From Eledone cirrhosa (taxonomy: Eukaryota): a DNA stretch of 64,000 bases. Positions 32,248-51,550 of this stretch are shown piece after piece. The notes beneath the pieces were generated by a model. That model saw only the letters and a program-made list of their open reading frames with translations, was not told the origin of the DNA and did no database searches. A program made the translations under genes and the position numbers. Every line of letters begins with the position of its first letter. Positions within the stretch are counted from its first letter, which is position 1. The stretch covers positions 3,348,001 through 3,412,000 of the forward strand of contig OZ024762.1 of the NCBI GenBank assembly GCA_964016885.1, in the 5' to 3' direction.

Positions 32248-32798
32248 TGTTCGGTAAACCCATACGTACATATATATATATATGTGTGCATGTATGTATG
32301 AATATACATACTACTGTACGGCTGTATACATATATGTATGTACGTATACATACTTATATTTAAGTATCAGCCGTACTAAGAGTGAGAAATGAAATTTCAT
32401 TCTTTTCCACTTATCGTTTTCGGTACGCCCGCCCGATTAACTCACTCGATATGCAAATTAGGCTGCTCAGCCGTTAATATGCATCAGGAAAGTATATACT
32501 TTCAAACGTTCAATCAACTGACAGGAAGGTATACGGTGCTGATGACAGCTAATAAGCTAGAAACTAGTTCATCGTTCCTTTGTCAGTGTTGAACAAAATG
32601 GCTATGATGGTTGCTGAACACTGTACGGCTTAATTCGGGCTGTTTGTTTACAAACAAACCGAGCATTATAATAAATGTTTGGTAAACCCATACGTACATA
32701 TATATATATATATATGTGTGTGTGCATGTATATATATATATACATACTACTGTACGTCTGTATATATATATGTATGTACGTATACATACTTATATTTA
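32248..32798 (+). mobile_element. Retrozyme-like (or Penelope pLTR-derived) non-coding element, ~1.3 units of a 428-nt monomer
   Basis: ggtaaacccatacgtac...cttatattta repeated at 32253 and 32681; HHR inside; homologous copy at 51115-51550. Confidence 0.65.
32517..32587 (+). ncRNA. Type-I hammerhead ribozyme motif
   Basis: actgacaggaagg-tat-acggtg-CTGATGA-c-agct-aata-agct-a-GAAA-ctag-TT-catcgt-tcctttgtcagt; long stem I with internal loop; palindromic ACUAGU stem III. Confidence 0.75.
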
Positions 32799-33789
32799 TA
32801 TATATATATATATATATATATGATAAATAGAGGTTGACTGTGATGGTCCTGAGACTTGCTCACTCAGAAGTTAAACAAGCCTGAGGACTGGCAAATGTTA
32901 AAGTCACAGTCAATCTTTGATTTGATTATATATCAAGTACTGAGAGTTGTTTCACCAGCAAATATTTGTTGTTATTCAATTAATAATAACCATAATCCAC
33001 ACACACACACACATATATATGTATATATTATATATGTGTGTGTGTATGGGTGTATATAGGCATCATAATACTTGTATGTTGTACTCATGCATTATTCAGT
33101 CCCACCTTTGCAAGCAAGGAAAAGTGGACGTAAAATGATGATAATGATGATATACACACATCTATATCTATCTGTCTCTCTATATGTATGTATGTATGTA
33201 TATATATATATATATATATATATATACATACACAAACATCTATATCTATATACACACAAACATCTATATCAATATCTATATACACACACACAAACATCTA
33301 TATATACACACACAAACATCTATATATATACACACACACAAACATCTATATCTATATATATACACACACAAACATCTATATATATATATACACACACAAA
33401 CATCTATATCTATATCTATATACACACACACAAACATCTATATATATATATATATACACACACAAACATCTATATCTATATATATATACACACACACAAA
33501 CATCTATATATATATATATACACACACAAACATCTATATCTATATATATATACACACACAAACATCTACATATCTCTCTCTCTCTCTCTCTCTCTCTCTC
33601 TCTCTCTCTCTCTCTCTCTCTCTCTCTCTCTCTCTCTCTCTCTCTCTCTCTCTCTCTCTCTCTCTATATATATATATATATATATATATATATATATACA
33701 CACACACATAATCATCTATCTCTCTATATATATATTTCTATATGTATGCATGTATGATGATGATCATCATATATATATATATATTTAGT

Positions 33790-36180
33790 AATGTAACCAG
33801 CTTTCATGTTATTAAGAGTGGTGTTCGGAGCATAACCTAACAGAGGTTTCTGCATAAAATCATAATGGAAAGCTTTTAGACTAATACAGACATTTTAACC
33901 TTTTCATTAGCATATTTATAACGAAATATACAGAGTATAATTATCAAATAATTTTGAAAATAATCAAGAAATGGAAAGCTTTTAGAGTAGTTATTATCAA
34001 TCATAACTTGGAAGCGATTTAATGATGCAACCAGCTTTCTTGTTATTTATCTGGTGTTTGGAACATAACTTAACAAAGGTGCTTACATAAAATTGTGATG
34101 GAAGGTTTTTAGGTAAATATAAATATTTTAAAGAAAAATAGTCTTGTGTTATAGAACTAATAGTGTTTGGAACATAACTTAACAAAGGTGCTTACATAAG
34201 ATTGTGATGGAAGGTTTTTAGGTAAATATAAATATTTTAAAGAAAAATAGTCTTGTGTTATAGAACTAATAGTGTTTGGAACATAACTTAACAAAGGTTC
34301 CTACATAAAATTGTGATGGAAGGTTTTTAGGTAAATATAAATATTTTAAAGAAAAATAGTCTTGTGTTATAGAACTAATAGTGTTTGGAACATAACTTAA
34401 CAAAGGTTCCTACATAAGATTGTGATGGAAGGTTTTTAGGTAAATATAAATATTTTAAAGAAAAATAGTCTTGTGTTATAGAACTAATAGTGTTTGGAAC
34501 AGAACTTAACAAAGGTTCCTACATAAGATTGTGATGGAAGGTTTTTTGGTAAATATGAACACTTTTAAAAATAAAAACAGTTTTGTGTCATAGAATTAGG
34601 GATGTTTGGAACATAACTTAACAAAGGTGCTTACATAAAATTGTGGTGGCAGGGTTTTAGATAAATATAAACACTTCAAAATAAACAGCTTTGTATTATT
34701 CAATGAGGGGTGTTTGGAACATAACTTAACAAAGGTTCTTACATAAAATTGTTATTGAAGATTTTTAGGTAAATATAAACATTTTAAAAGAAAATTGTTT
34801 CTTTTTTGTCACAGAATTAGGGGTGTTTGGAACATAACATAACATAAAGGTTGTAACATAAAATTGTGATGGAAGGTGTTTATATAAATATAAACACTTC
34901 AAAATAGACAGCTTTTGAATGAGAGGTGTTTGGAACATAACAAAGGTTATTACATACAATTATGATGGGAGGTTTTATATGATACACTGCTTTGTATCAT
35001 ATAAATGAGGAGTCAGTGGACCAATTTGGGTCTGAAAAATGGTTAAATAAACAAAAGAAGCAAAGAAAATGAGATGAGCTGGAGAAAAGCCTATAAATTT
35101 TGCTTGGAAGAAGCCATATAATTGATTTAGGAATATAGAAGAAGGCATGAATATAATATAAATCTTTTAAAATAACATTGGTTGTTAGAAAGATTTGTGT
35201 CAAATTGATAAAATATGCCTGCCTGTTTATCTAAACTACTGTTGGTTATTGAAATGGAATTATAAAGATAAATTCTAAGACCTTAGTTTTGAAAGTTCTG
35301 TTACAAAGTAGACACATAATAAAGAGCTGGATAAGGAAAGACTATAATATTGCCATAAAGTAGATTAATACTTTCCTTACTATCATTTATCTGGTGTTTG
35401 GAACATAACTTAATAAAGGTTCTTACATAGAATTATGTAGGAAGGTTTTTAGATAAATATAAACACTTTAATCTTTTCTTTACCATATTTTAATGAAAGA
35501 CACTGTTGGTGTTTGGAACATAACTTAACAAAGGTTCTTACATCAAATTATGTTGGAAGGTTTTTAGATAAATATAAGCTCTTCAACTTTTTCCTTACCA
35601 TATTTTAACAAAAGACACTGTTGGTGTTTTGAACATAACTTAACATCAAATTATGTTGGAAGGTTCTAGATAAATACAAACACCTTAACCTTTTCTTTAC
35701 CATATTTTAATGAAAGACGCTGTCTATTATTTTGAAATAATTTTGAAAATAATCAAGAATTTGAAGGGATTTAACTAAGTTTGTCATCATTATGCTGGTG
35801 CTTGGAACAACTTAATGCAAATTCTTAGATGAAATTATGCTGGAAGGTTTTAAAATAAAAAATTTGAAGGGATTTAGTAAAAAAAAAATCAAACTTTCTC
35901 ATTATTAAGCTGGTGTTTGGAGCATAACAAACGTTTTTGCATAAAATTATGATGAACAATTTTTAGATAATCCTTTTGTTGCCATATTTCTAATGAAAGA
36001 CAATGTCTTTGATTTTCAAATAATTTTGAAAATAAAAAAGAATTTGAAGAGATTTAATAAGGTAACTAACTTTCTCATTATTAAGCTGATGCTTGGAACA
36101 TAACTTAAATATTCTACAAATGTTCTAAAAGAAAAATACGATTGAAGGGTTTTAAATAAATATAAACATTTAAAAATTGT
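33790..36180. repeat. MITE-2-derived array, 109-bp core units at 34054-34980 with degenerate flanks
   Basis: gaacataactt at 34061, 34170, 34279 and onward. Confidence 0.88.
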
Positions 36181-49453: not shown

Positions 49454-51114
49454 GTAATAAACAGAGGATGTACACATTAAACCGTCTCTCTTCTTCATAA
49501 TCTTGAAACTCCAGTTGATCCTTTATTGATAACATTCTTAGGAATACAAATTGTAGAGTGCTTTACACCTGCTTTACAAAAGGTTGGTGGATTATCTGAT
49601 CAACCAACTTTCCTTAATTAAATAATATACCTACCTACCTACCTAGAAATATATATATATGTCTATCTGTTTATCTATCTCTCTCTCTCTATATATATAT
49701 ATATATGAGGGTTGGTTGAAAGGTTTATAGGCTGATTATGAAGGAGTGATGCTAGAGCTGTGAAATCTTGCAGGCATTAATTTCAACTCCTCTTATTAAT
49801 AACTGTTGTCTGGTTGCAGTATAGAATGTGAAGGCATATGGCTTAGTGGTTATGGTGCTGGCTTCATGATTATATAGTTGTGGGTTCAATTACTGGCCCA
49901 GGTGACACACTGTGTTCTTGAGCAAGATGCTTCTTTCCATGTTTTTCTTTCATGATAGGACTGAGGCCTGTAACATTATAATAACTGTTTCTACTTTTGG
50001 CACAAAGCCAGCAATTACCCCCAGTGCATTACTGGTACTTCATTTTAAGGATGAAAGGCAATATTAACCTCAGCAGGATTTGAACTCAGAACATAAAGAG
50101 CCATAACTCTATGCTGCAAAGCATGGTGTCCGACACTCTACCAATACTGCCAAGTGCAAGGAATCGCTTATGAGATCCAACCTTGTAGATGGTCAGCTAA
50201 ACCTACATAGGTTTCAGTATGGAATGTATGTTGATAGTATCTCAATTTGAATGGGTTTGCTCTAAGTCCACTGTAGTTCTCACAATTATTTTGTTTAAAT
50301 ATGCACACTGTTGAGCAGTAACGCAACTGCATTCTTTAAACATTCCCCACAGAAACAACTGGTTTCAGAAAGTTATACACTTTCATATTTAACCCTTAAG
50401 CATTTACATTACTCGATATTTACTATTATATTTTCATGGTAAAGGCTTTACCTCACTTAATTATCTCATGCAGTGTCGAATCTATGAGATTTTGATATTA
50501 TTTATTTTCAGAACATTACCTTAACATAAGTATGAGCAACTGGTTATGGCCAGTTTGAACAGAAACAGGTGAGAGAATTCTGGCTAGATACAGCCGGTTT
50601 AAATGGTAAAGGGTTAAATGGAGTTTGGTGTAACTAAAAGTTTGAGATATTTCTGATTGGTACTAGAGAAAAACGCATGAATTAAGGAGTGGCAAACAAG
50701 TAGCTTTAATAGAAATTGCAGGAAATATTTGTAATGTTTGAAAAAATATATAGTAGATAAAAGATTTACAAATTCTCTGCCAAGACAAAGTGCTTAATTC
50801 AGGGCTGTCATATAGTGTGTTTGTGTGTGTGTGTGTATATATATATGTATATGTTTTTATATTGGGATTAAATCTCCACTATGGTAACCCTTCTACCTTT
50901 GTTTTGTTTTCATCTTTGTCTCTCTCAATTTTCACTTTCACCTGTTTCTCCTATCTATCATTCACTTCCTACCTCGAGATTTCCCTCTGCATTGTTGTGG
51001 CTTTCTTAACTACGTATTTTATATATATGTATATATATATGTATATATATATGTACATATATATATGTATATATATATATATATATATATATATATATAT
51101 ATATATATATAAAT

Positions 51115-51550
51115 ATAAATGGAAAAAAATGAAATTTCATTTCTCACTCTTAGTATAGCAGATACTTAAATGTAAGTATGTATACGTACATACATATATG
51201 TATACAGACGTACAGTAGTATGTATATACATACATACATGCACACATATATATATATATGTACGTATGGGTTTACCGAACACTTATTATAATGCTCGGTT
51301 TGTTTGTAAACAAACAGCCCGAATTATTAGCCGTACAGTGTTCAGCAACCATCGCTGCCCTATTTGTTCAACACTGACAAAGGAACGATGAACTGGTTTC
51401 TAGCTTATTAGCTGTCATCAGCACCGTATACTTCCTGTCAGTTGATTGAATGTTTGAAAGTATATACTTTCCTTATGCATATTAACGGCTGAGCAGCCTA
51501 ATTTGCATATTGAGTGAGTTAGTCGGACGGGCGTACCGAAAACGATAAAT
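51115..51550 (-). mobile_element. Unit-length, circularly permuted copy of the same HHR element
   Basis: Reverse complement aligns by eye to 32409-32798 and then 32360-32414; ataaat at both ends. Confidence 0.65.
51373..51442 (-). ncRNA. Type-I hammerhead motif, second copy of the 32517 family
   Basis: Same core and stems; stem III reads A-ccag-U. Confidence 0.72.

Follow-up and report, generated by a model that had tools for sequence, protein, structure and literature searches.

A likely non-LTR retrozyme family with type I hammerheads in the genome of Eledone cirrhosa

A non-coding repeat unit of 428 nt that carries a type I hammerhead, here called family A, occurs twice in the 64-kb stretch of Eledone cirrhosa DNA that we analysed (the window). 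We consider it likely to be a non-LTR retrozyme, whose RNA would come from tandem loci, be cut to units, probably be circularised and be copied by a Penelope-like reverse transcriptase into TA-rich DNA. The evidence comes from the anatomy of the two copies, from public sequencing reads and from a diverged sister element in the same window.

The repeat unit and its hammerheads

Copy 1 (32248-32798, + strand) comprises 1.27 turns of the unit (32248-32675; GC 0.367) and runs at its 3' end into (TA)11. The initial annotation had described a terminal redundancy of about 115 nt with a period of 428 nt, and this was borne out by the alignment of 32248-32362 with the redundant end at 32676-32798, in which 109 of 115 positions are identical and which also includes an 8-nt microsatellite expansion. 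At one of the 6 differing positions the 3' end agrees with copy 2 and not with the 5' end of its own copy; the 6/115 differences could stem from a mixed tandem template or equally from later mutation. Copy 2 (51115-51552, - strand) is one permuted turn of the unit, with its 3' end leading into a (TA)n tract. Two blocks match copy 1 in exchanged order (32411-32798 with 51548-51167, 92.8%; 32248-32414 with 51281-51115, 95.2%), so copy 2 is a circular permutation of copy 1. Its ends correspond to 32409-32414, where copy 1 is uninterrupted, as the earlier description of a single permuted unit had it; only the end given there, 51550, is revised to 51550-51552, because the motif ATTTAT is present at both ends of the copy (51552-51547 and 51120-51115). 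On a circle numbered from the predicted cut, copy 1 ends at nt 107 and 221 and copy 2 at 268-273, so that neither copy starts or ends at the cut site. The flanks of the copies consist of microsatellites, a SINE-like stretch and a different repeat, family B.

The longest stop-free frames in the copies have 68 and 71 codons and no Pfam match was obtained in the six frames of the copy 1 unit, in agreement with the earlier statement that there is no ORF; the 64-kb window also contains no tRNA gene. The two extra hairpins named in the initial annotation are both present in the sequence. The unit has two adjacent hairpins of 7 bp and 10 bp (32642-32683, + strand) and a 6-bp hairpin upstream of the hammerhead (32488-32503, + strand), all with counterparts in the sister element, and the 5' end of copy 1 falls within the 3' arm of the 10-bp hairpin.

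The hammerhead of copy 1 lies at 32507-32593 (+ strand; core CTGATGA 32539-32545, GAAA 32560-32563, predicted cut after 32569) and that of copy 2 at 51366-51452 (- strand; core 51421-51415, predicted cut after 51391). Intact type I cores with a long stem I had been claimed for both copies, and we found all 11 core bases (CTGATGA, GAAA and the UH triplet) and the helices in each. Helix I, the open helix that defines type I, has 6 bp plus a long extension, with a bulge 6 bp from the core; helix II has 4 bp in copy 1, and loop II is A-rich. Helix III has only 2 bp and a 2-nt loop, and forms the palindrome ACTAGT in copy 1, which a private change in the loop breaks in copy 2. The base of helix II (positions 10.1/11.1) carries a C-A mismatch, which reads U-U in about 94% of the reads of run X10 (see below), and an unpaired state at these positions is predicted to slow cleavage. 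Mussel retrozymes are described in PMC7229834 as being without most of the bases of the loop 1 - loop 2 contact.

No Rfam model matched anywhere in the window at gathering scores, and the 55 matches obtained up to E 10 in 51000-52000, all below the gathering score, were to microRNA and other models on TA repeats, with no hammerhead family among them; the hammerhead call thus rests on the directly read core sequence and helices. When the fragments were folded in isolation, the active-compatible fold lay above the minimum by 2.5 kcal/mol in copy 1, by 3.2 kcal/mol in copy 2 and by 7.4 kcal/mol in the sister element, where helix III was left open. The circular unit had a folding z-score of -7.7 (-4.6 without its microsatellite part), but 10 of 31 background tiles reached -4.4 or lower, and since microsatellite tiles score alike these values were dropped as evidence.

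Occurrence in public reads and neighbouring families

Family A is many-copy in three organisms, represented by the four of 12 public sequencing runs whose reads or contigs were mapped on 51118-51895, an interval that covers families A and B together (51118-51272 masked) and in which contig depth was not taken as copy number. The listing of runs with the repeat contained no RNA run, a result that has no bearing on expression. The mapped records numbered 9,249 of 17,142,217 in X1, 31,544 of 12,467,656 in X10, 3,599 of 17,641,350 in X4 and 49 of 8,254,286 in X5. Loose ends at 51550 were present in 59 contigs of X1, 2,063 reads of X10, 89 contigs of X4 and 1 contig of X5, and in all four runs the consensus beyond them opens with the U-rich tail of the unit itself, showing that the family continues round the circle past the start of copy 2. 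Because reads continue across this point, the unit is contiguous with itself and is not a solo Penelope terminal repeat. Pile-ups of X10 read ends at 51500/51503, 51722 and 51779 were rejected as element ends, as all fall on AATT words; they were taken as restriction cuts of a RAD library, and a pile-up at 51477 is probably one as well.

The reads also revealed the family state of the hammerhead. The palindrome of helix III in copy 1 is shared by 6,831/6,993 and 5,033/5,119 reads of X10 and by about 99% of the depth in X1 and X4, and a G-U pair of helix I is replaced by A-U in 74% of the X4 depth. Among the variants listed, position 17 shows only U/A variation. None of the 11 core positions appears among the 40 of 180 variants listed, 22 of which lie within the covered 277 nt of that family, an absence that is not significant (chance about 0.4). 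Pattern scans of metagenome contigs and viral contigs gave no matches.

A diverged sister element, family C (12590-12937, - strand), is collinear with family A; the alignment spans 268 columns, of which 160 are identical, and scores 74 against a maximum of 42 in 500 shuffles. Its own type I hammerhead is complete, with the core at 12792 and a GUC cut predicted after 12759. The element has (TA)n on either side and shares the hairpins of family A with compensatory changes; in a 9-bp hairpin compared by hand, two two-sided and two one-sided changes separate the families and no pair is broken.

Family B (51553-51864, - strand), which abuts the 5' end of copy 2, is a different many-copy repeat whose hammerhead-like motif (core 51689) is decayed; it also has two CCAAT words, and outside the core no homology to A or C was detectable. 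It represents a terminal piece of a Penelope element or else a third retrozyme. Support was lacking both for its identification as the C-terminus of a Penelope endonuclease and for its identification as the start of an ORF: no Pfam family was obtained in six frames, and a 39-aa frame, a short and decayed query, matched none of 1.84 billion proteins and none of 11 candidates of a word search. No template-switch chimera of B with copy 2 has to be invoked, since a second insertion at the border of B and (TA)n, with duplication of ATTTAT, explains the junction.

Origin and mobilisation

In the course of events that we propose, transcripts would arise from head-to-tail loci in other parts of the genome, perhaps driven by an octamer element inside the upstream unit, in the manner of newt satellite 2. 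Hammerheads would cut this RNA to unit lengths, probably as double hammerheads formed through the palindromic helix III, and the units would likely be ligated into circles. A Penelope-like reverse transcriptase would then likely copy the RNA into TA-rich DNA, with start and stop points unrelated to the cut site, and the exact single turn of copy 2 could result from priming and finishing at the same ATTTAT homology on the circle. A class model for non-LTR retrozymes is presented in PMC7229834 and bioRxiv 10.64898/2026.07.22.740005, the latter reporting, as a point against the proposal, that only one of nine Xenopus retrozyme dimers cut itself in vitro. Each copy in the window has one hammerhead, so both are probably dead-end insertions without full-unit release; no locus with two complete hammerheads lies within the 64-kb window, and the run contigs are too short to span one. 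In all three insertions of families A and C a tract of at least (TA)5 is reached no more than 12 nt from the 3' end, against 9% of window positions, and (TA)n targeting is known for the Neptune and Naiad Penelope-like elements, as described in PMC8557442.

The initial annotation derived the copies from a circular or multimeric self-cleaving RNA. This is supported in part, by a non-coding, self-contiguous, many-copy type I unit with ends away from the cut site; self-cleavage is predicted, and the circular part of the claim has to be qualified, as DNA alone cannot separate a circular from an uncut head-to-tail template. The strongest alternative, which we regard as possible but considerably less probable, is a non-autonomous Penelope-like derivative whose template was linear RNA of tandem sources, head-to-tail and uncut; reverse transcription would start internally at preferred sites, with no circle and possibly little cleavage. 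The circle can be dispensed with, given that an anole Penelope-like protein used uncut RNA and that hammerhead mutants were without effect on insertion, according to PMC11167929, which also describes internal initiation on uncut RNA in the anole Poseidon element. The same U-rich tract marks the end of copy 2 and of family C, so copy ends may be non-random, and the linear template is further favoured by the non-identical redundant ends of copy 1 and by an active fold that lies above the predicted minimum. On the other hand, family A preserves the core, the helices and the palindrome, and so does family C with other helix sequences, which points to selection for cleavage; elements built in this way have yielded circles in coral, mussel and axolotl (described in PMC7229834); and the exact one-turn length of copy 2 is simplest on a circle.

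It is very unlikely that the copies are solo or truncated pLTRs of an autonomous Penelope-like element, even though type I hammerheads with a short palindromic helix III are described in Penelope pLTRs (PMC4209133) and the copies have (TA)n flanks, with family B, possibly a Penelope end, adjoining copy 2. Copy 1 is back at its own start after one unit with no ORF between, the unit's own tail stands upstream of the start of copy 2 in four runs, the unit has no Pfam match, and its long canonical helix I is unlike the minimal Penelope motifs. Attachment to a Penelope RT/GIY-YIG ORF, named in the initial annotation as evidence against a retrozyme, is absent from the window. Least probable of all is spread at the DNA level, with the hammerhead carried as a passenger on satellite array fragments that recombination, extrachromosomal DNA circles or a rolling-circle DNA transposon would have moved: DNA circles can likewise give rise to permuted fragments and to a one-turn insertion flanked by short homologies, but G-U pairs and compensatory changes are retained on the hammerhead strand, on which family C folds to -100.5 against -80.2 on the opposite strand, and the 3' ends, which are set by that strand, face (TA)n in three of three cases.

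A candidate promoter and the relation to known elements

For transcription of the proposed retrozyme, a candidate internal promoter element is the octamer motif in the word ATATGCAAAT, which lies 88 nt upstream of the core in copy 1 (32449-32458, + strand) and 87 nt upstream in copy 2 (51501-51510, - strand). Family C has two octamer words, at 12918 and 12885, and in each of the two families an octamer motif precedes the core by 87-93 nt; copy 1 also has a GC box (CCGCCC) about 20 nt upstream of the octamer word. The octamer region is the longest word common to A and C (11 nt), but simulations at the identity of the two families give a common run of at least 10 nt in 46% of cases; the only unusual point of the word is that it is the octamer motif. 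The chance of an octamer is 2.7% per unit from the background and 1.6% for it to be kept, both computed post hoc, and four other octamer words occur in the window outside these elements. The promoter of newt satellite 2 includes an octamer. This promoter is reported to be internal and of snRNA type (Coats 1994, as cited in PMC2220036), and the family A word upstream of the core is comparable as a candidate, with no proximal element identified.

We tentatively suggest, as a wider and rather speculative scheme, a lineage of circular-RNA retrozymes in cephalopods that comprises two or more diverged sister families and has an snRNA-type octamer promoter of its own, in which each unit would drive the next, only tandem loci would be active, and insertions would arise by a Penelope-like enzyme priming on the circle at short AT homologies in (TA)n. 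Metazoan retrozymes are stated to lack promoters and conserved motifs (PMC7761336); if the scheme is true, it would contradict that statement and extend the promoter logic of newt satellite 2 to a mollusc.

Metazoan non-LTR retrozymes, as characterised by Cervera and de la Pena 2020 (PMC7229834), resemble family A in being non-coding repeats a few hundred bases long that carry a type I hammerhead, occur in many copies, are species-restricted in sequence and have neither an LTR nor a tRNA part. We applied as criteria a non-coding unit of about 150-450 bp, GC below 45-50%, self-contiguity and many copies, and family A agrees with the class in size, GC, hammerhead, self-contiguity and copy number. 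The 350-390-bp units of Mytilus galloprovincialis are a close kind, likened here by description and not by sequence; circles and cleavage are demonstrated for the mussel retrozymes in PMC7229834 and are predicted for family A. Here one copy is a 1.27-mer and the other a monomer, while the retrozymes described in PMC7229834 form arrays; monomers are given as normal family members in bioRxiv 10.64898/2026.07.22.740005. Newt satellite 2 and the axolotl retrozymes HHR_Amex1 and HHR_Amex2 are described in PMC7229834 with a weak helix III suited to double hammerheads, as in family A, and the U-U mismatch at the base of helix II in HHR_Amex2 is the majority state of family A in X10; the newt and axolotl elements belong to another phylum, and the family A unit is longer.

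Penelope-like elements, proposed as source and mover of non-LTR retrozymes, share the type I hammerhead, partial-tandem insertions, AT-rich or (TA)n targets and ends away from the cut, as described in PMC4209133, PMC8557442, PMC11167929 and bioRxiv 10.64898/2026.07.22.740005. Family A differs in having no RT or GIY-YIG ORF in or beside the unit, and in its long helix I and 4-bp helix II, compared with the minimal Penelope motif. The RT ORF scanned in the window is of LINE type with a PHD finger; a protein search with the LINE product gave Hydractinia, at 53%, as its best named matches and named no cephalopod. Plant LTR retrozymes, with type III hammerheads in LTRs, a PBS and a PPT, are unlike the type I family A.

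The retrozyme class has already been described, and family A appears to be undescribed and likely a new family within it: no published cephalopod retrozyme family was found, and the main text of PMC7229834 makes no mention of cephalopods, although its supplementary lists might name some. Four hammerhead-like motifs from three families occur in 64 kb, and the repeat annotation of Octopus vulgaris assigns 6.83% of the genome to Penelope-like elements with ribozymes unmentioned there (PMC13282606); such elements may form a sizeable unlabelled share of the repeats of this genome. Family A adds a probable cephalopod family to the known class of ribozyme-bearing retroelements. Two diverged families share the octamer word at a constant spacing from the core, which provides a handle on the transcription of the class, and the (TA)n targets, together with the exact one-turn insertion, provide one on the mobilising enzyme.

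Unit layout and hammerhead motif of family A

Copy 1 of the family A repeat (32248-32798, + strand) has a period of 428 nt: the segment 32248-32362 occurs again at 32676-32798. The two occurrences agree at 109 of 115 aligned positions, and the second carries an 8-nt microsatellite expansion. At one site the 3' redundant end shows the state of copy 2 and differs from its own 5' end, either by later mutation or through a mixed tandem template. Copy 2 (51115-51552, - strand) contains two blocks matching copy 1 (92.8% and 95.2% identity) in swapped order. Its opening point corresponds to 32409-32414 of copy 1, which is unbroken there, and the 6-mer ATTTAT at either end indicates that copy 2 spans exactly one turn and 6 further nt. 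The unit has a GC content of 36.7%, its longest frame is 68 codons, and a Pfam search in six frames gave no match. These data bear out the initial annotation, which described a 428-nt period with about 115 nt of terminal redundancy in copy 1, a copy 2 formed by a single unit opened inside the continuous stretch of copy 1, and an element without ORF. The unit also has two ACTGTACGGCT copies and two partly complementary CAGCCGT words (32312-32327, 32618-32633, 32369-32377 and 32467-32475), which could form alternative long-range pairings in a circle. Mutually related SINE-like heads are located at 32043-32137, just upstream of copy 1, and at 60775-60900; ARAGORN called no tRNA genes.

A single type I hammerhead is present in each copy, with CTGATGA (at 32539 in copy 1, +; at 51421 in copy 2, -), GAAA and a UH triplet, with predicted cuts after 32569 and 51391, respectively. 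The intact core and long stem I previously reported for both copies were read directly; Rfam reported no hammerhead, and the identification is thus based on the sequence itself. In helix I, 6 contiguous pairs are followed by a bulge and then a long extension; helix II shows a C-A mismatch at 10.1/11.1 below 4 pairs, and helix III has 2 pairs and a 2-nt loop, forming the palindrome ACTAGT in copy 1. Hammerheads that cleave as dimers are described as being marked by a short palindromic helix III (PMC4209133). When the fragments are folded in isolation, the lowest-energy structure buries the core in a small hairpin; the active-compatible fold costs 2.5 kcal/mol more in copy 1 and 3.2 kcal/mol more in copy 2. 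The unit folds strongly as a circle (z -7.7); this was not counted as support, since a z of -4.4 or lower is also reached by 10 of 31 background tiles in a window rich in microsatellites.

A diverged sister element and a shared octamer word

A core scan revealed two further motifs with GAAAC, at 12792 (-) and 51689 (-). The first belongs to family C (12590-12937, -), a 348-nt element collinear with the family A unit, with 160 identities in 268 columns, an alignment score of 74 (highest score among 500 shuffles, 42), and nhmmer E values of 3e-6 and 6e-6 to the two family A copies. Its hammerhead is complete (8-bp helix I, 3-bp helix III, GUC triplet), and three hairpins lie at distances from the core that match family A; the last of them, read by hand, keeps 9 of 9 pairs with two two-sided and two one-sided changes. 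Family C also has a 14-nt palindrome directly after helix I and (TA)n flanks on either side; the TA-rich hairpin block present in family A is missing from it.

The word ATATGCAAAT is common to families A and C, lying upstream of the core by 88 nt in copy 1, 87 nt in copy 2 and 93 nt in family C, and ATGCAAAT is the octamer of snRNA gene enhancers. The word is doubled in family C as a 33-nt direct repeat; in family A, folding also places it in a paired RNA hairpin. For newt satellite 2, which was the first hammerhead repeat of animals, transcription from an internal promoter of the snRNA type is described (Coats 1994, cited in PMC2220036); according to a review, retrozymes seem to be without promoters (PMC7761336). 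With modest, post hoc support, the octamer word is a candidate promoter element in both families.

Family A in sequencing reads and neighbouring repeats

A run search with 32365-32690 returned 12 runs from 6 studies, 9 of them containing part of the stretch. Reads or contigs were aligned to 51118-51895 from four of these 12 public runs, X1 and X10 (organism A), X4 (organism B) and X5 (organism C); in the contig runs 51118-51272 was skipped as repeat. The target collected 9,249 records in X1, 31,544 in X10, 3,599 in X4 and 49 in X5, mostly 85-99% alike, and these records represent a many-copy, heterogeneous family common to the three organisms. Loose ends at the copy 2 start (51550) were found in 59 contigs of X1, 2,063 reads of X10, 89 contigs of X4 and 1 contig of X5. 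Their consensus (agreement 0.47-0.69 where records are many; 24 rows listed, 958 further) opens with about 14 letters or more of the unit's own U-rich tail, indicating that family A runs on round the unit there. Depth is at plateau across 51274-51299, the equivalent of the copy 1 start. X10 is a RAD library with read-end piles on AATT words, and its read ends are therefore no guide to element ends. The motif variants among those listed appear compatible with hammerhead function: the family as a whole has the palindromic helix III (at least 98% in each of the four runs), U and A are the states at position 17, and in helix I one G-U pair changes to A-U. Positions 10.1 and 11.1 shift jointly from C-A to U-U (94%/93% of X10 reads, 40%/46% of X1 depth, 8%/2% of X4 depth), a mismatch also described for an axolotl retrozyme (PMC7229834).

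The 51689 motif lies in family B (51553-51864, -). This is a distinct repeat, also present in many copies, that adjoins the 5' end of copy 2 and whose hammerhead is damaged in the window's copy. No homology to families A or C was found beyond the hammerhead core, and protein-level searches gave no match. Family B has two CCAAT words at a spacing of 31 nt. In one X1 contig, 51859 is linked back to 51628 via 36 other letters, a hint that family B may be arranged head to tail in units of about 270 nt; loose ends at 51861-51864 in three runs indicate that family B extends further upstream. Most reads (189 of 282 in X10) lack 4 nt at 51657-51660 (within 51686-51553, -), and in such copies the ATG inside the hammerhead core would be in frame with a 39-codon open stretch that runs to the 3' end of family B, about 130 nt past this ATG. 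The layout is reminiscent of anole Poseidon, described as having an ORF that starts from the hammerhead and copies that end 111-118 nt into it; no protein match supports a coding reading of the stretch in family B.

A minimal Penelope-type hammerhead remnant (61249-61290, +) retains CTGATGA, one unpaired base, a 6-bp helix II and GAAA, with its 3' half damaged. CTGANGA...GAAA spacings without convincing helices, at 57563 (+), 17332 (-), 49353 (+), 45688 (-) and 4273 (-), are probably chance or decayed occurrences. LINE-type reverse transcriptase fragments with an inserted PHD finger (10965-12170, 15545-16333, 22087-22803, 45063-46130, 58399-59427) have best database relatives 65% identical, and named ones about 53%. 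A GC-rich 20-bp minisatellite of 48 copies occupies 41356-42314 in a window otherwise rich in AT microsatellites.

Copying route and class of family A

If the unit is drawn as a circle with numbering from the predicted cut, the 5' end of copy 1 falls at nt 107 and its 3' end at nt 221 one turn later, and both ends of copy 2 fall at nt 268-273; in both copies the cut site is internal and intact. Since a cut linear monomer would end at the cut, the template was presumably a circle or an uncut multimer. In all three insertions of families A and C, the 3' end runs into (TA)5 or a longer tract, versus 9% of window positions. Such (TA)n targets are described for the Penelope-like elements Neptune and Naiad (PMC8557442), and an anole Penelope-like protein is reported to nick AT-rich DNA and to begin reverse transcription inside its RNA (PMC11167929). 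Because the ends lie away from the cut and the 3' ends run into (TA)n, and given the Penelope-like precedents, a non-LTR retrozyme cycle (PMC7229834) is most likely, in which tandem family A loci would be transcribed, the tandem RNA cut by paired hammerheads, the units ligated, and the ligated RNA copied back into DNA by a Penelope-like enzyme. We consider this circular RNA route reasonably probable. Copying from a linear uncut tandem template seems rather doubtful; it is favoured by the anole study, where cleavage was reported as unnecessary for insertion (PMC11167929), by the difference between the two redundant ends of copy 1, and by a report that only 1 of 9 Xenopus dimers cleaved in vitro (bioRxiv 10.64898/2026.07.22.740005). 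Since the unit runs back into itself, it is unlikely to be a solo Penelope terminal repeat.

The literature found on retrozymes and hammerhead ribozymes in octopus and other cephalopods, as far as its accessible text goes, describes no cephalopod family, and repeat libraries may carry family A under a different name; "ribozyme" has 0 occurrences in the text and supplement of an Octopus vulgaris repeat annotation from 2026. Non-LTR retrozymes have been found in coral, mussel, axolotl and many vertebrates, and published work already connects them with Penelope-like elements. The family A repeat is real, and it is probably a further family within the known class of non-LTR retrozymes.
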